A DNA stretch of 63,432 nucleotides, filler included, from Asterionella formosa (Eukaryota): NCBI GenBank assembly GCA_002256025.1. It is 16 parts of 16 records of this genome, joined end to end, with 100 filler letters (N's around TTAATTAATTAA, not from the genome) between each part and the next. Parts side by side here need not be neighbours in the genome. Positions count along the whole stretch, not along the records: positions 59,305 to 61,319 come from NKIB01000632.1; 15 more parts are not named here. One strand, 5' to 3'. Made by a program: the position numbers and the translations under genes. The notes beneath the pieces are model-generated. The model saw nothing but the letters and a program-made list of their open reading frames with translations. It had not been told where the DNA came from and made no database searches. Below, piece after piece: positions 31,758 to 61,419 of the stretch (its first letter is position 1; every line of letters begins with the position of its first letter).

Positions 31758-33779
31758 ACTGTCCCCAGTTGGTACCAGGGCACCGCTCTCCTCCGTCCCC
31801 ACTGCCAAGTCATCAATGAAGATGTTGAACAGTATAGGCGAAAGAGGGCAACCCTGCCGCACACCTCGCAACAGTCTGCAGGGGTCCGAGTACAGGGCAG
31901 TCAAGCCACCCCCCACTCGTACCCTGATTGTACTGCTGCGATAAAGGGCACGTAGAAAAGCAAGGCAACGTCCCCTGATCCCAAACCTGGATAGTTTCGC
32001 AAAGAGCGCCTCGTGGGGCACCGTATCATATGCCTTCTTGAGGTCTACGAATACCACGTAGGTCGGCTCTCCCACTATCCTCCGGCGTTGTATGATTTCC
32101 ATGACACAGGCTACCTGGGTTACACATTCCTCTCTCTGGCGAAAGCCAGCCTGGGCTCGGCTAAACAGCCCTCGAGATTCCGCTTCCACATTTATCCTGG
32201 TACCAAGGATCACACACACCACCTTGAGGACAGTGGCCATGAGCGAAATCCCCCGATAGTTGTTCATATCAGCCAAGTCCCCTTTCTTAGGTATTGAGAC
32301 GACCAGTGACTCAGCCCACGACTGGGCCACCAGTCCCCTCTCATACGCAAAGTTGAGTAGGGTTCCTAGTGAGTCCGTCATTGGAGCGGATGGTGGCGGG
32401 GCGGGCTCCTCTTCCCGATAGTTTTGAAGGTGGGAAAGTAGGGCCCGTTCCTCCGCCAAACATGCCTGTAGCAGTTCAGTGGGTATCCCGTCACCGCCCG
32501 GAGCACGATGGCTCTTCATCTTCCTCAGGGCAGTCCAAATATCGGAGGTTGTGAAGGGTTCGTCCAGCGAACGGATCCCCTCATTTGCCTGTGGGTGCGG
32601 GTCAAATTTCTCCCAATATTGGGCCTCCTGGCTATGACCGGTTTCATCTGCTGCTAGAGAGGCATAGTGCGCTCCCCAGGCCTGATGAATATCAGTCAAA
32701 GCTGTCAGCAGGCGTCCGTCCGGGCCAAGGACCGGTTGGACACCTGCGATGCTGCTCTTCTGGCGCCATCCTGCAGTCGCTGAGGCCCACCGCCAATAGT
32801 GGCGAGGTTTCTCGCGCATATTGACGTGCGCCTCCCTAATTGCCTTATACCATGCCCGCCTACCCGAGAGGCGGATCACCTTCCGCGCCCTCTCTTTGGC
32901 AGCCTTGTACATGTCCCCAAGCCGTGCTACATCTTCACGGTCTCCTCGCGACTCCGCCCTCCGGGTTTCCCGGAAGATCCTCCTTCGGGTCTCAATCGCC
33001 CGACGTACCTGTCCTGTCACTCTTGGTGGGTTTTGTCCCGCCACCCGTTGGTGGAGGTTCAGGTCCTCTGCCACCTGGTGACATGTTGTAGTGAACTTCT
33101 TGGCCATACCATCCAACCTTTCCTGGTGGTAACTGGTGGGGTTTTCGAGTGAATGTGAACACTCGATTACATCCTCCAGGTCCTCCTCCAGCGAGTCAGC
33201 TAGTGGCTGCCAATAATTACTACTAGCCACGGTTACTTTGAGTTCCTTCTTCTCCATCACAATCCGCCGGTACAGTGATTCCGGCCGTGGTGGGGCAATC
33301 CCCATCTCTGGGATTCTGGTAAGCCCAGGTAGGTCCGCAACAACTGGGAAGTGGTCCGAAATATCCCATGTGTCGAGGACCCTGGCAGGGGGGACAGCCG
33401 CCACTGTGTCACCACAATATGTGATGAAATCAATGGCAGGTGTTGGCTGTCCCTCCCGCCGGCTTTGGCGAGTGGAGGCCCCCCCTCGGATGGGTAACAC
33501 CCGAAAGGGAAGCCGCCACGGTCCCATCAGAATCTGCAACTCCGTCATCTTCATGTTGAAGTCTCCCATCATCACAATGGGATCTTCTGGAAACTCCCGA
33601 TGTAGAGCGTCCAAGGCTCGGGGCAGGGCCCTGAGCACTCGGATGCGATCCGCTCTGCATGGGACATAGATTGTTCCCACAAGAATAGGCCTCAAGAGCG
33701 TGGCCCCATAGACTCTCGCAAAAGTCCAAAATGGTGTGGCCTTACCAACTGGGGTACAGTTGAATTTGGTCGACACCAG
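31758..33779 (-). mobile_element. Non-LTR retrotransposon (LINE) ORF fragment: AP endonuclease C-half plus RT N-half, open throughout
   Basis: APE motifs MMGDFN, IDFI, SDHFPV. RT motifs APGGDG, IPKKGD, NYRGISL, QAGFR, FVDLKKAYD, GVRQGCPLSPILFNIFIDDL. Confidence 0.95.
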
Positions 33780-33879
33780 NNNNNNNNNNNNNNNNNNNNN
33801 NNNNNNNNNNNNNNNNNNNNNNNTTAATTAATTAANNNNNNNNNNNNNNNNNNNNNNNNNNNNNNNNNNNNNNNNNNNN

Positions 33880-35901
33880 ACTGTCCCCAGTTGGTACCAG
33901 GGCACCGCTCTCCTCCGTCCCCACTGCCAAGTCATCAATGAAGATGTTGAACAGTATAGGCGAAAGAGGGCAACCCTGCCGCACACCTCGCAACAGTCTG
34001 CAGGGGTCCGAGTACAGGGCAGTCAAGCCACCCCCCACTCGTACCCTGATTGTACTGCTGCGATAAAGGGCACGTAGAAAAGCAAGGCAACGTCCCCTGA
34101 TCCCAAACCGGGATAGTTTCGCAAAGAGCGCCTCGTGGGGCACCGTATCATATGCCTTCTTGAGGTCTACGAATACCACTTAGGTCGGCTCTCCCACTAT
34201 CCTCTGGCGTTGTATGATTTCCATGACACAGGCTACCTGGGTTACACATTCCTCTCTCTGGCGAAAGCCAGCCTGGGCTCGGCTAAACAGCCCTCGAGAT
34301 TCCGCTTCCACATTTATCCTGGTACCAAGGATCACACACACCACCTTGAGGACAGTGGCCATGAGCGAAATCCCCCGATAGTTGTTCATATCAGCCAAGT
34401 CCCCTTTCTTCGGTATTGAGACGACCAGTGACTCAGCCCACGACTGGGCCACCAGTCCCCTCTCATACGCAAAGTTGAGTAGGGTTCCTAGTGAGTCCGT
34501 CATTGGAGCGGATGGTGGCGGGGCGGGCTCCTCTTCCCGATAGTTTTGAAGGTGGGAAAGTAGGGCCCGTTCCTCCGCCAAACATGCCTGTAGCAGTTCA
34601 GTGGGTATCCCGTCACCGCCCGGAGCACGATGGCTCTTCATCTTCCTCAGGGCAGTCCAAATATCGGAGGTTGTGAAGGGTTCGTCCAGCGAACGGATCC
34701 CCTCATTTGCCTGTGGGTGCGGGTCAAATTTCTCCCAATATTGGGCCTCCTGGCTATGACCGGTTTCATCTGCTGCTAGAGAGGCATAGTGCGCTCCCCA
34801 GGCCTGATGAATATCAGTCAAAGCTGTCAGCAGGCGTCCGTCCGGGCCAAGGACCGGTTGGACACCTGCGATGCTGCTCTTCTGGCGCCATCCTGCAGTC
34901 GCTGAGGCCCACCGCCAATAGTGGCGAGGTTTCTCGCGCATATTGACGTGAGCCTCCCTAATTGCCTTATACCATGCCCGCCTACCCGAGAGGCGGATCA
35001 CCTTCCGCGCCCTCTCTTTGGCAGCCTTGTACATGTCCCCAAGCCGTGCTACATCTTCACGGTCTCCTCGCGACTCCGCCCTCCGGGTTTCCCGGAAAAT
35101 CCTCCTTCGGGTCTCAATCGCCCGACGTACCTGTCCTGTCACTCTTGGTGGGTTTTGTCCCGCCACCCGTTGGTGGAGGTTCAGGTCCTCTGCCACCTGG
35201 TGACATGTTGTAGTGAACTTCTTGGCCATACCATCCAACCTTTCCTGGTGGTAACCGGTGGGGTTTTCGAGTGAATGTGAACACTCGATTACATCCTCCA
35301 GGTCCTCCTCCAGCGAGTCAGCTAGTGGCTGCCAATAGTTACTACTAGCCACGGTTACTTTGAGCTCCTTCTCCTCCATCACAATCCGCCGGTACAGTGA
35401 TTCCGGCCGTGGTGGGGCAATCCCCATCTCTGGGATTCTGGTAAGCCCAGGTAGGTCCGCAACAACTGGGAAGTGGTCCGAAATATCCCATGTGTCGAGG
35501 ACCCTGGCAGGGGGGACAGCCGCCACTGTGTCACCACAATATGTGATGAAATCAATGGCAGGTGTTGGCTGTCCCTCCCGCCGGCTTTGGCGAGTGGAGG
35601 CCCCCCCTCGGATGGGTAACACCCGAAAGGGAAGCCGCCACGGTCCCATCAGAATCTGCAACTCCGTCATCTTCATGTTGAAGTCTCCCATCATCACAAT
35701 GGGATCTTCTGGAAACTCCCGATGTAGAGCGTCCAAGGCTCGGGGCAGGGCCCTGAGCACTCGGATGCGATCCGCTCTGCATGGGACATAGATTGTTCCC
35801 ACAAGAATAGGCCTCAAGAGCGTGGCCCCATAGACTCTCGCAAAAGTCCAAAATGGTGTGGCCTTACCAACTGGGGTACAGTTGAATTTGGTCGACACCA
35901 G
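33880..35901 (-). pseudogene. Second near-identical LINE copy with a premature stop in RT
   Basis: Same 2022-bp boundaries as 31758-33779 with scattered SNPs; TAC>TAA at 34180-34182 (GEPT*VVFVD). Confidence 0.9.
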
Positions 35902-40244: not shown

Positions 40245-42265
40245 CGGGCCAGAGCTTATGCCAAGGCCTCGGGTCTCAAAACCTGGCTTCAGGAATTGGT
40301 CCTAAGACCATTCCGAAGTCAGAAATGGACATGGTGCTCGGGGGTTCCGCGCTGGCTGAAACGCTATGCGCTCCCCCATGCGCCAGTGTCTATTGTGGAG
40401 AGGTACCGGTACTTGGGTGCTGGATGGCAGAGCCTGGAACCAAAGGTACTGGCTGAGGTAGTGAAAGCATGCATCTTGGAGAGAGAGTGTGGGATCCGAC
40501 GGAATTTGACTCGTCCGTCGGGGGCCCGCACAGTGTGGTATGAGGGAGCCGGATTTGACAAGCATCCACTCACACGGTCACGTGTGGGGGGCAGTCCCAA
40601 AGACCAAGCAGGACTGGCTTTGATAGTTCGGTGTCGGATTGGGGCATTTGTAACTGTCCCCACCTTGGTGGGGTGGAAGCGAATGCCTCATAGGTATTTG
40701 AGGAAGTGTCCATTTTGTGGTATGGATGAACCAGAAACGCTGGAACACTTAGTGTTCACGTGTGGTCGGTGGCGTGGTCTACGCACCGAGCCACACATGG
40801 CAGAATTGATCGCGAAAGTTCGGACAATCAGGGTACGAGTGGGGGGTGGCTTGACTGCCCTTTACTCGGACCCCTGCAGACTGTTGCGAGGTGTGCGGCA
40901 GGGTTGCCCTCTTTCGCCTATACTGTTCAACATCTTCATTGATGACTTGGCAGTGGGGACGGAGGAGAGCGGTGCCCTGGTACCAACTGGGGACAGTCGC
41001 ACATGGCGGAACTCCACACTGACAGTGGGATGTACCCTCTTTGCTGATGATGCGGCCGGAATCTGCCCCTCCCTGGAGGCGGCCAAACGGTTCTGTACGC
41101 ACGTTACCAACTGGGTTACAGCTAACGAGATGAGTGTGGGCATAGGGAAGTGCGGGCTGATGGAATTCCTACCGCCAGACCCAGACCCGGCCACCGAACC
41201 GCTTGTCCCTGGACAAGATGTGGCTGGACTGGAACTGGAGGGACTTCCACTCCCTGTTGTGGACAGATATATGTATCTGGGTGTCCTCATGACACCAGGT
41301 CTGTCTATCTTGTCTATGGTGGACCATAGAGTCAAGCAAGGGCGGGCCACAGTTGCCACCTTGGTACCGTTTCTACGGTGCCCGGTGGTACCAATGGCCA
41401 TGCGTTTGCTGACTGTTGCAGGAGTAGTTGCCCCCCGCCTCCTTTTTGGGGCTGAGCTGTATGGTATGAACCGTCACCTTACGGACAAAATGCAGGTTCT
41501 TCTGAACCGATGCCTTAGGGCTAGCATTGGAGCCAGGAGGGCAGGGGATGTGCCATCAGTAGGCCTTTGGAAGGAGGCACGGATGTTGCCAATGTGTGCC
41601 TTGGCGGGTGCCCGACGGGCCAGAGCTTATGCCAAGGCCTCGGGGCTCAAAACCTGGCTTCAGGAATTGGTCCTAAGACCATTCCGAAGTCAGAAATGGA
41701 CATGGTGCTCGGGGGTTCCGCGCTGGCTGAAACGCTATGCGCTCCCCCATGCGCCAGTGTCTATTGTGGAGAGGTACCGGTACTTGGGTGCTGGATGGCA
41801 GAGCCTGGAACCAAAGGTACTGGCTGAGGTAGTGAAAGCATGCATTTTGGAGAGAGAGTGTGGGATCCGACGGAACTTGACTCGTCCGTCGGGGGCCCGC
41901 ACAGTGTGGTATGAGGGAGCCGGATTTGACAAGCATCCACTCACACGGTCACGTGTGGGGGGCAGTCCCAAAGACCAAGCAGGACTGGCTTTGATAGTTC
42001 GGTGTCGGATTGGGGCATTTGTAACTGTCCCCACCTTGGTGGGGTGGAAGCGAATGCCTCATAGGTATTTGAGGAAGTGTCCATTTTGTGGTATGGATGA
42101 ACCAGAAACGCTGGAACACTTAGTGTTCACGTGTGGTCGGTGGCGTGTTCTACGTACCGAGCCACACATGGCAGAATTGATCGCGAAAGTTCGGACGTTA
42201 GGGCCGAATTTCGCCCTCGGTTTTGACCAACAACGGTTGGCATGGCTCCTCGGAGGGAGTTGTGA
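40245..42265 (+). mobile_element. LINE 3' region (RT core LFADD, C-terminal CPFC..HLVFTC zinc finger) with an in-frame 1371-bp tandem junction
   Basis: 40245-40825 repeats at 41616-42196. The RT segment overlaps the copies at 31758 and 33880 (IRVRVGGGLTALYSD...PTGDS). Confidence 0.9.
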
Positions 42266-46604: not shown

Positions 46605-48623
46605 ACAGCCCTCGAGATTCCGCTTCCACATTTATCCTGGTACCAAGGATCACACACACCACCTTGAGGACAGTGGCCATGAGCGAAATCCCCCGATAGT
46701 TGTTCATATCAGCCAAGTCCCCTTTCTTCGGTATTGAGACGACCAGTGACTCAGCCCATGACTGGGCCACCAGTCCCCTCTCATACGCAAAGTTGAGTAG
46801 GGTTCCTAGTGAGTCCGTCATTGGAGTGGATGGTGGCGGGGTGGGCTCCTCTTCCCGATAGTTTTGAAGGTGGGAAAGTAGGGCCCGTTCCTCCGCCAAA
46901 CATGCCTGTAGCAGTTCAGTGGGTATCCCGTCACCGCCCGGAGCACGATGGCTCTTCATCTTCCTTAGGGCAGTCCAAATATCGGAGGTTGTGAAGGGTT
47001 CGTCCAGCGAACGGATCCCCTCATTTGCCTGTGGTTGCGGGTCAAATTTCTCCCAATATTGGGCCTCCTGGCTATGACCGGTTTCATCTGCTGCTAGAGA
47101 GGCATAGTGTGCTCCCCAGGCCTGATGAATATCAGTCAAAGCTGTCAGCAGGCGTCCATCCGGGCCAAGGACCGGTTGGACACCTGCGATGCTGCTCTTC
47201 TGGCGCCATCCTGCAGTCGCTGAGGCCCACCGCCAATAATGGCGAGGTTTCTCGCGCATATTGACGTGAGCCTCCCTAATTGCCTTATACCATGCCCGCC
47301 TACCCGAGAGGCGGATCACCTTCCGCGCCCTCTCTTTGGCAGCCTTGTACATGTCCCCAAGCCGTGCTACATCTTCACGGTCTCCTCGCGACTCCGCCCT
47401 CCGGGTTTCCCGGAAGATCCTCCTTCGGGTCTCAATCGCCCGACGTACCTGTCCTGTCACTCTTGGTGGGTTTAGTCCCGCCACCCGTTGGTGGAGGTTC
47501 AGGTCCTCTGCCACCTGGTGACATGTTGTAGTGAACTTCTTGGCCATACCATCCAACCTTTCCTGGTGGTAACTGGTGGGGTTTTCAAGTGAATGTGAAC
47601 ACTCGATTACATCCTCCAGGTCCTCTTCCAGCGAGTCAGCTAGTGGCTGCCAATAGTTACTATTAGCCACGGTTACTTTGAGTTCCTTCTCTTCCATCAC
47701 AATCCGCCAGTACAGTGATTCCGGCCGTGGTGGGGCAATCCCCATCTCTGGGATTCTGGTAAGCCCAGGTAGGTCCGCAACAACTGGGAAGTGGTCCGAA
47801 ATATCCCATGTGTCGAGGACCCTGGCAGGGGGGACAGCCGCCACTGTGTCACCACAATATGTGATGAAATCAATGGCAGGTGTTGGCTGTCCCTCCCGCC
47901 GGCTTTGGCGAGTGGAGGCCCCCCCTCGGATGGGTAACACCCGAAAGGGAAGCCGCCACGGTCCCATCAGAATCTGCAGCTCCGTCATCTTCATGTTGAA
48001 GTCCCCCATCATCACAATGGGATCTTCTGGAAACTCCCGATGTAGAGCGTCCAAGGCTCGGGGCAGGGCCCTGAGCACTCGGATGCGATCCGCTCTGCAT
48101 GGGACATAGATTGTTCCCACAAGAATAGGCCTCAAGAGCGTGGCCCCATAGACTCTCGCAAAAGTCCAAAATGGTGTGGCCTTACCAACTGGGGTACAGT
48201 TGAATTTGGTCGACACCAGTATTGCCACACCTCGCTGCGACGCTGTCAGGTCCCCCATTGCTGTGAGGCAATGGTAACCTGGCAAACGAAGCTGCCAATC
48301 CGTTGATCGTAGCAGCGTCTCCTGCACTGCCATAACATCACACCGGGTTTGTTGCAACAGAAACCGAAGATCGGTTTTTTTCCGCTGCAGCCCGTTGATG
48401 TTAAGGGTGCCCACCACCAGTGGTGCCCCAAAGCCATCTGGTGGTATCGTGGGCGTTGGGGATCCGGGTGGGTTTATCTGAGCACCTGCGGCCGCAGGTG
48501 CCAAGCTTGGTCCCACCCTCTCCAAATACGGTATGTGGTGTCGGAAATACCACCCATACCGCGCCTTTCCAGGTTCCATCTTCCCCAAGAATGTAGCAAC
48601 ATAGGCGCTTGTTACCCAAATGT
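46605..48623 (-). mobile_element. LINE copy containing the complete AP-endonuclease domain and the start of RT
   Basis: GTLNINGL, DVMAVQET, GVAILV, GDFN, SDHFPV; same family as 31758 and 33880. Confidence 0.95.
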
Positions 48624-53841: not shown

Positions 53842-54970
53842 AATAAAAACTATCATATTTCCATAATTCATCATAGGATTGTGATCATCTGATCATAATT
53901 TTTCGTTATATCATCTAATAATTTTGATAAATGCCTTTGTAATTTAAATAGTACCGGTAACCCTTTTGACTACATATATTTAATAATTATATGTATTGTT
54001 TCTATTTGATTCCTGTATTCGAATTTCTTGGTAGGATAATGTACCAGTTCAAGTAATGTAATTTTGCTCGTCATTTCCATCCGTCATCACTCCGATTTTT
54101 GCAACAACAACGAAATACTAGCGATGACAAGCGGAATGAATGTTTGCGATAACGTGCGTCTTCAATTTTTTGGTCAAGTGATCTTTTTATCTTCGAGTAA
54201 TTGTCATGTGCAGTGAACCTTTGTTCATAATCATTCAATTAAGAGTTTACAGGAGAGAAGAAACCATTCGAAATCATAATGTTTCCGCACACAGCGCACA
54301 AAGTATATCTGTTTCGTCCACTTGAGCATGACAATTTCGCCAATCAACCCGAAAAGAAAAACATTCTACTTGTTCTCATTGACATTTTCAATTCTCACAT
54401 GATACTACATCTACCATTGAGATTCAGCATAGAAGGAGATACGAAAATGTGCGTAACAGACTACTGTCCACATAGCTATAGTTATAGAATGATTCTGATT
54501 AGAATGCATTTCATTTTCATATCGCTCACTCGTTTCTGCATTTGGTATACTGTACTTGAATTAACTATTGAACTTGTCCGCATCTTTGATACCATCAAGA
54601 GAGCGAAAGCAAGTGGCTCTTTTCATTGTTGTTTGCTCGTAGGAAGAATTTGATATCTGTATCGTCATTTGCTTGTTGGAATGGTCCGTTGCCTCAAACT
54701 TGCTTGGCGTGTGCGTTCACACACTGTCGACTTGTTTTCAATGGTATGATGTTCTTGTATTCACTGTTGAACTTGTCCGCATCTTTGATACCATCAATAG
54801 AGCGACAAGTGGGTCTCTTCATTGTTGTTTGCTCCTGGAAAAGTCGGTGTCCGTGTCCGTGTCCGTGTCATCCTCATCAATAGAGAGACAAGTTCTTTCG
54901 TTGGAAAAATTGGTACCATATCATCATTTGCTCGTTCGAACCACTGTCCGATGCCTAAAACCTGATAAGC
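53842..54970. repeat. Dispersed repeat of about 1.1 kb, copy 1, with internal sub-repeats
   Basis: Colinear with 57421-58560; internal TTGAACTTGTCCGCATCTTTGATACCATCAA duplication. Confidence 0.85.
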
Positions 54971-55147
54971 GTTNNNNNNNNNNNNNNNNNNNNNNNNNNN
55001 NNNNNNNNNNNNNNNNNTTAATTAATTAANNNNNNNNNNNNNNNNNNNNNNNNNNNNNNNNNNNNNNNNNNNNACAGTCTCACCTGATTTCTCATCGGCC
55101 GTAACCATGTCTCTAGACCTGTAGGTTCGTTTTAAAACGTGTTAAAT

Positions 55148-57420: not shown

Positions 57421-58560
57421 TGCAAATAAAAACTAGCATATTTCCATGATGCATCATAAGATTGTGATCATCTGGTCATAATTTTTCGTTATATCATCTA
57501 ATAATTTTGATAAATGCCCTTGTAATTTAAATAGTAACCGTTTTGACTACATATATTTAATTTTTATATCGATTGTTTCTATTAGATTCCTGTATTCGAA
57601 TTTCTTAGTAAGATAATGTACCAGCTGAAGTAATGTATTTTGGCTCGTCATTTCCATCTGTCATCACTCTGATTTTTGCAACAACAACGAAATTCTAGCG
57701 ATGACAAGTGGAATGATTGTTTGCGATAACGACGTCTTCAATTGTTGGTCATGTGATCATTATATCTTTGAGTAATCGTCATGTGCAGTGAACCTTTGTT
57801 CATACTAATCATTCAATTAAGAGTTTACAGAGAAGAAATGATTGGAACTCGTAATGGTTCTGCACACAGCGCACATTGTGAATCCCTTTCGTCGACCACC
57901 AGCATTACAATCTCGCCAATCAACCCGTAAACAAACACATTCTACTTGTTCTCGTTGACATTTTCAATTCTCACATGATAGTACATCTAATATTGAGATT
58001 CAGCATAGAAGGAGATGCGAAAATGTAACAGACTGCTTCCACATCCACATAGCTATAGTTATAGAATGATTCTGATTACAATCTCGTTTTAATGTTGCTC
58101 ATTTCCGCATTTAGCATGCTGTACTTGTATTTACTATTGAACTTGTCCGCATCTTTGATACCATCAAGAGAACGAAAGCAAGTGGCTCTCTTCATTGTTG
58201 TTTGCTCGTAGGAAATATTTGATATTCGTATCGTCATTTGCTTGTTGGAACTGTCCATTGCCTCAAACCTGCTTGACGTGTGTGTACACACTGCCGACTT
58301 GTTTTAATTGGTATGTTGTTCTTGTATTCGTTTCACTGTTGAACTTGTCCGCATTTTTTTTACCATCAATAGAGCGACAATTGGCCTGGGTCTCTTCATT
58401 GTTGTTTGCTCCTGGAAAAGTCGGTGTTAGTGTCCGTGTCATCCTCATCAATAGAGGGACAAGTGTGCTTCATCATTGAGATTTACCGCTGGAATAATTG
58501 GTACCCGTGGTATCATCATTTGCTCATTGGAACCACTGTCCGTTGCCTCAAACCTGATTA
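57421..58560. repeat. Dispersed repeat of about 1.1 kb, copy 2
   Basis: Colinear with 53842-54970. Confidence 0.85.
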
Positions 58561-59304
58561 GCGTGTGTGTATAAGCACTGTCGACTTGTTTACATTACAG
58601 GAGTGACTTAGCTACTAAAGTGCGTGTTATAATATCATACTCCATAGTACGATGCAGAATACTACAGTTCCCAATCATCTCATCATGATTGATAAGATGA
58701 TAATGTGATATCACGATAGGTTTACATCGATGCATACATCACCAAAGTATGATCCGTAATATTGAATAAAGTATATCACATAGCTAGTGTGATACATTGA
58801 TCATAGAACTATGATGATTTCTTAAAATGTTTGTGATATAATTTTGATCAAAATATGATCATGTTCAAAATAATAATACAATGACAATAAAATATGATAA
58901 AATATGTACGCAAGTGTTATCAATGCATCATTGAAAATAAATTAATGAATCATAATTATGTTAGCTACTTAATATATAAATTCGACTTTTAATGTATACA
59001 GTGAAAGCCAACAGTTACTATGATAGTATTATACGGTGGATAGGATCAAAGTATACGGATGCATTGATATGTACATCACTATAATATGATTTGTGATATG
59101 GATTGATGCATATCACATACCGGTATCCTCAACAACCAGCCATCACGTTCATTGTTGTGTCGTTTTTCCTTGTTATAGCTATATATATATGCCGGCATGT
59201 GTATNNNNNNNNNNNNNNNNNNNNNNNNNNNNNNNNNNNNNNNNNNNNTTAATTAATTAANNNNNNNNNNNNNNNNNNNNNNNNNNNNNNNNNNNNNNNN
59301 NNNN

Positions 59305-61299
59305 ATTTCTGTAAACTTTTTCAGTACATTGTGATGTTTGGAAACATGTACCTGGACACCACACACACTATCGCCACACTTCCAGATGAGATCAATTGCA
59401 GGAAAATTGGAGTTTCGGGGAACATACATTCCATTTTCGTTCATGATTTCTGGCAACACATTGGAGGGAAAGGTACTCTTTGGGGGAAAAGTTTCAATGA
59501 GATTGCATTTCTTCAATGCCGAAAATCCTTTCAAAAAAGTAACATTTGCATTGGTTGAACAGTGCTTGATCACAAGAAATTCAAAAATCCGACCACGAGT
59601 GTCATTTGTTGTACTAAGATTGGCACAGACTAACAAAAGTGATGCCTCGTGTGTTTCGACATATTCCAGTATGTCCTCCCAAAAGAAGGTTTGATCTGCT
59701 ACCAACACCAAAGGATACAATGGCTCGTAGTGAGTGAACTCCTCCCTCTTGCCAGGAATTGAATACTTTCTGTCATAATACATGGCATGGCCTGTATTTG
59801 ACAAAATGCAACCAACTGCTGATGCTGTGATACCCTTATACTCCAATTCCGTTTTCGTGTCATGCAATTTTCCAAGAGAAAATAGAATTGAGCACAATTC
59901 ACCCTTTTCATAATTGGCAATTGAAAAGTTGAAGGAAATCAGATTCCTCACCTGTAAGGGCACCCCACCAGTCACCTTTAATATTTCTTTGCCGTTATTC
60001 CGTATAGCCACTTCATTAAAAGCAAGCTCTATTTCTGCCAAATTCATTTGGCAAGGGTGATCATACTCCACAAACCCTCGATGACTTTCCCTGTAGGCTA
60101 TCTCGTTGTTTGCGGAAGCTGAAATGATGGAGACAATGCGGTCTCCCTTCATTATGCTGTTGATGAGACGAAAAGAAAAGGGAAGAGTGCCCAGATCAAC
60201 AGATTTGTTTAGCTCTGGTCGAGCAAACAATCTGTTGATCTGATCGAAGACTAGGACCCATTTCTTGTTCATATCTTGAAGAATCAAGTCAATGGCATTG
60301 ACAAAAGTTTGCAGATCTCTTGAATTTTCGATATCATTTGAACAGATCTTCCACTTGAGAGCCGGTAAGGAAGTACCAAATGATCTACAGATTGCAGTGT
60401 ACAACTCGTTAACATCATTCCATTCTTGACAGTCTGGAATGAAAGTTACGAGGTACTTGCAGCTGCTGTTATATTGCAGGTTACGAACCAAGTTGACAAG
60501 TGAGTGCGACTTGCCAATTCCATGCGGTCCTTTGATCATGATTCCAGTCCGACGCTCTTTCTTGAAGGCATCTTCAACAACTTTCATCATTTCATTCACA
60601 ATTTTAGGGCGATATAAGATTCCCCTACTAACACTGTCGTCGAACCGCACCTGTTGGACATTTTCAATCCAGTAACTATCAGTTGGGGAAAAAGCGGGTA
60701 AAGTAGGATCAGAAAGAGGTAAGGTAGGGTCAGAAGGAGGTAAAGTAGGAATAGAAGGAATTTTTTTCGGATCAATCATGTAGATATGCATTGTCTTTGG
60801 AATTCTTCGGTCTTGCTGATCCGCCTCCAAGCGCTTGAAATGAACGTTGAGCTTCTCCTTTATAAGCAATATTAAGGACGAGGCTTCATCCTGCTCATCA
60901 TTTGGTTTCTGGCGTTTTGTCGCTCCTTGGCATTTCCAACAGTAGCGTGAGTATTAGGAGCTGTGACCTACAATACAATAGAAGGTATTCCATGAGATCA
61001 AAACACGTACCAATATCAGGTGCAACAATCACGAACGCATTCTTGCTGCTAGTTCCCCAATTCAGATGAACAACCAGACCTCCAGGATTCAAGGTTGGAT
61101 CATCAGCTCCCTCAGGAACCGGCACTTGAGTTCCAGTTGGGTACACACGGAGCTGCGCTGAGGAAACACCTTGAAGATTGTCACCACATTTGATCTTCAC
61201 AGCTTCCATCAAGTCAGCAATGACATCATTCTTCTTCAACGTGACATAAACTGGCAATAGTCCTGCGTTTCCAAGAAACAACTGGAACCAAACCTTCAT
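59305..61299 (-). CDS. Crinkler (CRN/CR)-type protein: ubiquitin-like header + P-loop NTPase + PD-(D/E)xK-like nuclease (exons 61299-61011 and 60925-<59305)
   Basis: Header MKVWFQLF...VIADLMEAVKIK...AQLRVYP...AFVIVAP. An 85-bp intron (GTACGT donor, CTAAT branch, AAG acceptor) joins it in frame to GATKRQKP. Walker A IKGPHGIGKS, Walker B VLVFDQIN; RGRIFEFLV and NFPAIDLIW...GVQVHVS. Confidence 0.75.
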
Positions 61300-61419
61300 T
61301 GTTTTCTAACTGATGGTGGNNNNNNNNNNNNNNNNNNNNNNNNNNNNNNNNNNNNNNNNNNNNTTAATTAATTAANNNNNNNNNNNNNNNNNNNNNNNNN
61401 NNNNNNNNNNNNNNNNNNN

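Follow-up and report, generated by a model that had tools for sequence, protein, structure and literature searches.

The gene described here is almost certainly a member of the CR (Crinkler/RHS) class with the NTPase-REase architecture of that class, and it belongs to a large, transcribed birth-and-death family in the diatom Asterionella formosa, comprising head-to-tail arrays, in-frame double headers, and nuclease-less and decayed copies. The window, that is, the whole stretch of 63,432 nucleotides that was analysed, consists of 16 contigs of the genome assembly joined by artificial N-TTAATTAATTAA-N spacers, and adjacency within it is not genomic; window neighbours were therefore ruled out as gene context. 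The focal gene is the sole gene of one 2015-bp contig (G000:C632, positions 59305-61319) and lies on the minus strand. The first-pass annotation had read it as a Ubl header, an NTPase and a restriction-fold nuclease hidden by an intron, and each of these domains was recovered in the present analysis (Table 1).

Table 1. Features of the focal contig and its bordering spacers, in window coordinates.
Feature	Position	Strand	Remark
Artificial contig spacer, not biological	61320..61419	.	
Exon 1, 96 codons, CR-Ubl (Crinkler N-terminal) header	61011..61299	-	ATG at 61299
AQLRVYP, LxLFLAK-equivalent, strand 3	61138..61158	-	header residues 48-54
AFVIVAP, HVLVVVP-equivalent, predicted strand 5, header end	61018..61038	-	residues 88-94
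Phase-1 GT..AG intron, 85 bp, at header boundary	60926..61010	-	RNA joints X6, X2
Exon 2, incomplete at contig end; remaining 63 codons and stop found on overlapping contigs	59305..60925	-	
KRQK, NLS-like basic motif	60906..60917	-	
Pro-rich 7-residue repeat linker, variable copy number	60684..60746	-	
P-loop NTPase	60030..60674	-	Pfam AAA_22
Walker A	60507-60530	-	
Walker B, hhhhDQ	60234-60260	-	
SASANNE, sensor-like	60102-60122	-	
Helical lid and winged helix (limits approximate)	59675..60029	-	
PD-(D/E)xK-fold nuclease	59305..59674	-	paralogue model
RGRIFE	59580-59597	-	
PAID	59391-59402	-	
GVQVH	59346-59360	-	
Artificial contig spacer, not biological	59205..59304	.	

The focal reading frame has no stop in the window, as the contig ends first. 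Its final 127 bases overlap exactly with the ends of five other contigs, which supply the missing C-terminal codons and stop; a truncated gene is ruled out by these overlaps, and the frame breaks off at a branch of the assembly. A metagenome copy assembled independently (L113) is complete and 96% identical to the focal gene. Exon 2 also occurs at 99-100% identity on three other contigs, with other headers or none, and hence the focal pairing of header and body may be one path through the repeat graph. Elsewhere in the window, four 2-kb contigs (31758-35901, 40245-42265 and 46605-48623) have a GC of 0.56 against about 0.42 for the assembly; one frame is open nearly throughout them, two look near-identical, and they could represent a GC-rich repeat or another organism. 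Positions 54243-55029 and 58159-58479 share translated text with L070:2520-2931, where it directly follows a header-only copy, and the three are seemingly one dispersed non-coding repeat.

The proposal that two separate open reading frames are joined by a canonical 85-bp intron at the header boundary is borne out by RNA. Three RNA runs (X6, X2 and X9) and one DNA run (X1) were compared as contigs, so no expression level is implied. A joint at 60924/61010 that skips 85 nt with matching ends occurs in X6 and X2, two of the three RNA runs, and was not found in X9 or in the DNA run; the loose end present in X9 at 61011 can be read as the splice form of the paralogues. Depth in the intron bin is 60 in X6 and 207 in X2, against thousands on either side, with no drop in the DNA. 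X6 possibly derives from the same sample as the assembly, and X2 is a separate study. More than half of the sampled words are present in 10 RNA runs from 7 studies, and spliced natural paralogue proteins (P0047, P0259) are found in databases. Among the 21 in-frame donor/acceptor pairs listed, 61010/60926 has a GTACGT donor and spans 85 nt. Upstream TAG and CAG acceptors were ruled out as out of frame; an 88-nt intron is in frame, but the 85-nt joint is the only one among those listed. The intron, in phase 1, falls at the header boundary, as had been claimed.

In most paralogues the intron measures 115 bp and has its acceptor 6 nt further upstream than that of the focal copy, in which the intron is 36 nt shorter and the acceptor AG of the paralogues is lost. 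Because two other copies (L006 and L032) also lack this usual AG, the RNA joint proves use of the focal acceptor within the family, not uniquely in the focal copy. An L018-type copy is without an in-frame acceptor near the usual place. In L018/L019 (intron region 2590-2737) the full body is stop-free and the last 30 nt before the basic patch contain no in-frame AG; this copy may be spliced in a non-standard way or translated from an internal start. In the metagenome copy (L113:492-2720), the 123-nt intron is in frame and stop-free, and unspliced RNA would read through it.

The header was modelled with AF2 (pLDDT 65) as a beta-beta-alpha-beta-beta arrangement of beta-grasp type. The top rows of a VIA structure search were ubiquitin-like (best Z 6.5), as were those of Foldseek (best E 0.004), although Foldseek gave no match at E<=0.001 for either the header or the tail model, and fold scores for both are middling, all with Z <8. 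The two motifs had been placed at positions equivalent to LFLAK and HVLVVVP, and in the model they fall on strands 3 and 5; the portion of PMC5289972 consulted likewise puts LxLFLAK on strand 3 of the header. All 30 of 30 Atlas hits of the header are PF20147 (Crinkler) clusters (score 0.93, 208/256 features), the nearest being fungal. The suggested search against PF20147 came out in two parts. The focal header has no Pfam match and is not among the 9 of 15 aligned headers that match PF20147 at E<=1 (best 2.4e-6), whereas the C6017 header, 67% identical to it, reaches 27.3 bits over a cut-off of 24.6; the profile control of this C6017 header matched 0 of 14 control genomes. The paralogue matches stop at profile positions 51-53, near the AQLRVYP motif. 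Assignment of the header as a Crinkler-type Ubl is supported by this model and by these profile and cluster matches. Canonical oomycete CRNs are recognized, in the part of PMC3607596 available, by LxLFLAK within 66 residues and HVLVVVP. The focal header lacks literal forms of both and has only diverged equivalents, so that by its literal motifs the gene is not a canonical oomycete CRN.

Beyond the intron, the body begins with a basic patch followed by a linker, an NTPase and a nuclease-like tail. The KRQK motif stands where it had been reported and is kept in 24 of the 25 intron types listed (KRKK in the remaining one); it is NLS-like by the usual consensus of such signals. The linker had been described as three TLP.SDP units; a repeat linker is indeed present, with two full units and the third only partial. 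Unit number differs between copies, and RNA and DNA joints in this region go back 42 and 63 nt. The NTPase matches Pfam AAA_22 at 27.9 bits (cut-off 27), with weak matches to NACHT and ATPase_2; NCBIfam hits are all sub-cut-off, including orc1/cdc6 TIGR02928 (E 9e-6), which lies far under its cut-off. Both Walker motifs are in place. G132, G137, K138 and S139 of Walker A are invariant in 43/43 aligned bodies, and the hhhhDQ form of Walker B is found in 39 of 43. Walker B motifs usually carry a hydrolytic E, the position occupied by Q here.

The tail was modelled from a complete paralogue tail that is 60% identical, not from the focal copy, with pLDDT 90. Residues 1-67 of this model resemble the C-terminal winged-helix domain of an archaeal AAA+ ATPase (2fna_B; Z 5.9, rmsd 2.3). 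VIA rows for the tail include N.BspD6I (Z 7.3), Card1 (7.1), FokI (6.3) and McrC (6.2); most top rows are restriction-fold nucleases, and the best aligns 143 residues at rmsd 5.2. Taking the established roles of PD-(D/E)xK motifs as a guide, the putative catalytic residues E448, D511, Q524 and H526 (exon-2 numbering) are conserved in 35, 41, 40 and 41 of 43 bodies, respectively, across rows with identity down to 27%. The nearest Atlas clusters of the tail are oomycete (0.97), and the third hit is Euglenozoan with 14% RHSP PF07999 (0.96); the recognition value lies below 2300, the mark set by the tool, which makes this a weaker lead. The paralogue model supports a PD-(D/E)xK-fold nuclease, in line with the nuclease-like RGRIFE...PAID...QV tail proposed earlier.

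Paralogues and header shuffling, expected from the first reading, are abundant. In the assembly (G000) the NTPase region is matched 107 times, the header 75 times and the tail 114 times, figures that do not count copies. At 97% identity, 15 types are distinguished among the 30 best NTPase loci; stops occur in 10 of these 30 matches, and the focal type and four more sequence types have a stop-free full body. Five loci (L006-L010) share one new tail and a stop just after the NTPase, without a nuclease, and this subfamily could possibly act as a decoy or modulator. Two headers about 490 bp apart occur on 11 contigs; the four double headers that were read are all in frame, and the join is present in RNA contigs. 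Decayed copies lie head-to-tail upstream of the header in L050, L068 and L096 and downstream of L113. Identities to the focal copy are mosaic, with 93% in the header and 100% in the body of L001, and 96% in the header and 80% in the nuclease of L020. Median paralogue dN/dS, computed over non-independent pairs, is 0.55 for the NTPase, 0.61 for the nuclease, 0.71 for the header and 0.87 for the linker, and dN is below dS in 45/45 NTPase pairs (range 0.35-0.78). Values of 0.55-0.9 would fit relaxed constraint as well as mixed selection. Comparison of 5' and 3' flanks among copies, which lie on short contigs, gave no common terminus, and no transposase was seen on the copies read; together with the tandem arrays, this favours duplication over transposition. 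The TpA observed/expected ratio of intact copies (0.49-0.54) lies within that of three host ORFs (0.45-0.60), and thus gives no sign of TpA-erasing hypermutation above the host level.

A dispersed repeat of about 230 nt, with a TTAGGG-like start and two short palindromes centred on CTAG, was also found (L102:4742-4974; L071:1670-1840; L104-L112). It has 41 exact 16-mer hits in G000, of which three are beside or in a CR copy among those read (L021/L071, L102, L108), and 8/9 loci fetched by the repeat pattern have no CR match. In L102 it directly follows a truncated NTPase, and this junction is present in RNA. No Rfam family was found for it. CR-specific telomere healing or a subtelomeric position was rejected, as the TTAGGG runs belong to this dispersed repeat and lie mostly away from CR copies.

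In other organisms, 386 representatives match at E<=0.001, several body relatives lying on Mb-scale contigs and some being multicopy. Five bodies of the present genome form one clade among 36 rows (SH-aLRT 100, quick tree). The distant relatives examined are header-less single ORFs or have SAM or coiled-coil N-termini, and many of those at 35-40% identity are intronless. The header profile found none in distant relatives among 383 proteins, its 7 hits being all of the near-identical lineage. The NTPase-nuclease core thus looks diatom-wide, to judge from these sequences, with the header as an exchangeable part. Pattern scans gave one weak hit in viral contigs (26%, E 3e-5) among at least 601 pattern matches, and 0/71 in prokaryotic genomes; scans of this type miss distant relatives. 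Some relatives (P0055, P0176, L125:1-663) show two N-terminal SAM domains, a duplicated NTPase, and a different nuclease-like tail gene directly upstream.

That the gene stands alone on a 2-kb contig, and that its nearest Atlas clusters are fungal for the header and oomycete for the tail, could suggest that the contig derives from a parasite present in the culture, either a chytrid or an oomycete. Such contamination is very unlikely, with hardly any weight left to it. Copies occur on 14-92 kb contigs amid host genes, the GC of the focal contig (0.42) equals that of a long host contig (0.43), and the only two organism-named body relatives among 120 listed profile hits are both diatoms (Amphora coffeaeformis and Attheya sp.). 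The header is moreover joined in frame to a HECT gene, and the named homologues of that gene come from diatoms. The check for a contaminating parasite that had been proposed therefore places the family as native to the diatom.

This header-HECT fusion also links the family to the DNA of the diatom. Three contigs show the header running without an intron, right after its FVIIAP motif, into a NEDD4-like HECT ligase (HECT E 9.5e-48); the fusion loci are L060:119-2652, L059, L061 and L120:2560-4026, and the join is the HVLVVVP-equivalent site, in frame. A database protein, P0263 (cluster of 17), is the full 877-residue header-HECT product without genomic introns, and a loose end in RNA run X6 matches the fusion. 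P0263 retains the whole ligase to the C-terminal HECT end and is 51-70% identical, in the region searched, to homologues including named diatom proteins; those of Grammatophora, Nitzschia, Cylindrotheca, Odontella and Thalassiosira begin with a Met of their own and have no header. Fused and unfused HECT forms from this organism group together as sisters (100/100). Duplication has also affected the HECT gene, which has 21 matches in G000, many on near-identical contigs; on four contigs it is unfused with its own 5' region, in one case (C6017) 5.6 kb from a CR copy. In the metagenome loci L119 and L120, a decayed CR copy lies head-to-tail before the fusion. The simplest reading is that recombination placed a header exon of the array in the 5' region of a HECT duplicate next to it. 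A complex prediction between the HECT-fused header and the focal header and body scored 0.00 with no alignments used, and it weighs neither way. A CR header fragment is also found about 4.6 kb from a second HECT paralogue, which is 50% identical, the two being in head-to-head orientation (L092/L075, G000:C4697).

The product is predicted to be an intracellular protein of about 700 residues, with a Ubl header, an NLS-like patch, a repeat linker, a P-loop NTPase with winged helix, and a restriction-fold nuclease. It would enter the nucleus via its basic patch, where nucleotide binding by the NTPase and winged helix would gate a nuclease that cuts DNA; because Walker B has Q in place of the usual E, the switch is likely to be slow. 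The alga may use this kind of rapidly diversifying conflict nuclease to attack DNA that invades the cell or to kill the cell once it is infected. Its spread would have occurred by tandem duplication and unequal crossing-over and not by self-transposition, while the boundary intron and a shared promoter would make the header an exchangeable module, giving rise to double headers and to the header-HECT ligase. We give a host conflict role of this CR nuclease family about an even chance. The accessible part of PMC5289972 (section 11) names NTPase plus REase as the commonest CR tail and suggests that some non-secreted plant CR proteins act on intracellular invasive DNA.

Tandem arrays, the many decayed copies and the mosaics may also be explained by a selfish family, in which breaks made by the nuclease near its own loci are repaired by homologous recombination that spreads and shuffles copies with no gain to the host; nuclease-less copies and the header-HECT ligase would then be suppressors or debris. 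Other genomes show separate expansions, each on a single Mb-scale contig (clusters 3, 5 and 8), which point the same way, as do the link of NTPase-REase pairs to mobile elements and a CRN-like selfish gene in animals, reported in the portions seen of PMC5289972 (section 11) and PMC12957317, respectively. Yet the flanks compared show no shared terminus, the copies read carry no transposase, the TpA ratio of intact copies is host-like, and spliced transcripts occur in polyadenylated libraries across several studies, and we consider this reading possible but somewhat doubtful. It is distinctly unlikely that the protein is exported, with the Ubl header carrying the nuclease into the cells of a parasite, a grazer or a competitor in the way that CRNs of oomycetes reach the nuclei of plants. 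The header is of PF20147 type with both motif equivalents, and CRN N-termini mediate translocation in oomycetes (PMC5289972, in the part available); however, a crude check found no strongly hydrophobic N-terminal run (9-residue mean hydropathy <=1.8), a core whose 35-40% relatives are so often header-less or have other N-termini works without the header, and the header is also fused to an intracellular E3. High dN/dS, frequent stops and the L018-type copy without a nearby in-frame acceptor might indicate a once-active family that is drifting, its expression a by-product of a strong promoter. Such decay is highly doubtful, as the full body is free of stops in at least five sequence types, dN is below dS in all 45 NTPase pairs and the catalytic residues are kept.

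Returning to the host conflict role, a more elaborate and rather unlikely form of it would be a complete toxin system with its own control, assembled from Crinkler components. In it, nuclear nucleases under NTPase gating, diversified in tandem arrays, would provide innate defence, nuclease-less and double-header copies would be modulators, and the header-HECT E3, formed in the array from a neighbouring host gene, would regulate or destroy members via the shared Ubl header or direct ubiquitination to the target of the header. If true, this would be the first defence-effector system for diatoms, whose defence against parasites is described as poorly known in the part consulted of 10.1101/2025.10.10.681168, and it would allow a direct test of the CRN header outside pathogens. 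The occurrence of a transcribed, expanding CR family in one diatom and of a header-less core in others shows that the Ubl header and the NTPase-nuclease module combine and separate independently of each other. With a host E3 joined to the header at the classic site of recombination, nature has provided an experiment on what the header does, and the fusion shows that new host genes can arise from such arrays.

The nearest known systems are the CR proteins of Phytophthora, Rhizophagus and chytrids, for which a CR-Ubl, CR-NTPase, HTH and CR-REase type is described (Zhang et al. 2016, as far as available via PMC5289972). These share the domain order and a Ubl header with motif equivalents, and likewise show recombination right after the HVLVVVP-equivalent, tail-to-head arrays, many pseudogenes and an NLS-like patch; the lineage-specific expansion with recombination at the header boundary that marks the class is also found here. 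The present family differs in belonging to a free-living diatom, in its diverged motifs LRVYP and FVIVAP, in its in-frame double headers, in a header fused to a host HECT E3, in most distant relatives being header-less, and in having its header boundary marked by a spliceosomal intron; introns were absent from the ten P. capsici CRNs that were tested, according to the portion of PMC3607596 seen. Diatom NEDD4-like HECT E3 ligases have the same C-terminal ligase as P0263, but theirs is without a Ubl header. Trypanosomatid RHS proteins (PF07999) are likewise a multicopy NTPase-nuclease family in tandem, with an RHS header in place of the Ubl header, and the 43 bodies gave no PF07999 match among the first 25 of 31 families. 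Animal AACRN(L), as presented in the accessible text of PMC12957317, is also a CRN-type gene amplified in free-living eukaryotes, with the host E3 TRAF6 reported as antidote; it has an ADP-ribosyltransferase tail and a degenerate header, whereas an NTPase-nuclease tail and an intact header are present here. Prokaryotic STAND/AAA+ NTPase-nuclease defence proteins and archaeal ATPases (SSO1545, Avs3, Cdc6/Orc1-like) share the NTPase, winged helix and restriction-fold nuclease, and the structural rows of the body are 2fna, 2qen and 8dgc. In contrast to them, the diatom protein has a eukaryotic header and an intron and ends after the nuclease, with no NLR/STAND C-terminal sensor repeats and no repeat family among those listed. 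CR proteins are known from free-living chlorophytes, land plants, amoebozoans and animals (from the parts seen of sources including PMC5289972, PMC12957317, PMC9815663 and PMC6131194). Two model diatom genomes served as CRN-negative controls in which none was found, in the part of PMC3607596 available, and the literature searched contained neither diatom CR genes nor a Crinkler-HECT fusion; the supplements of Zhang et al. 2016 may list diatoms. The basic design is already known, and what appears to be new, judged by this literature, is the diatom clade, the boundary intron, the double headers and the header-HECT fusion.
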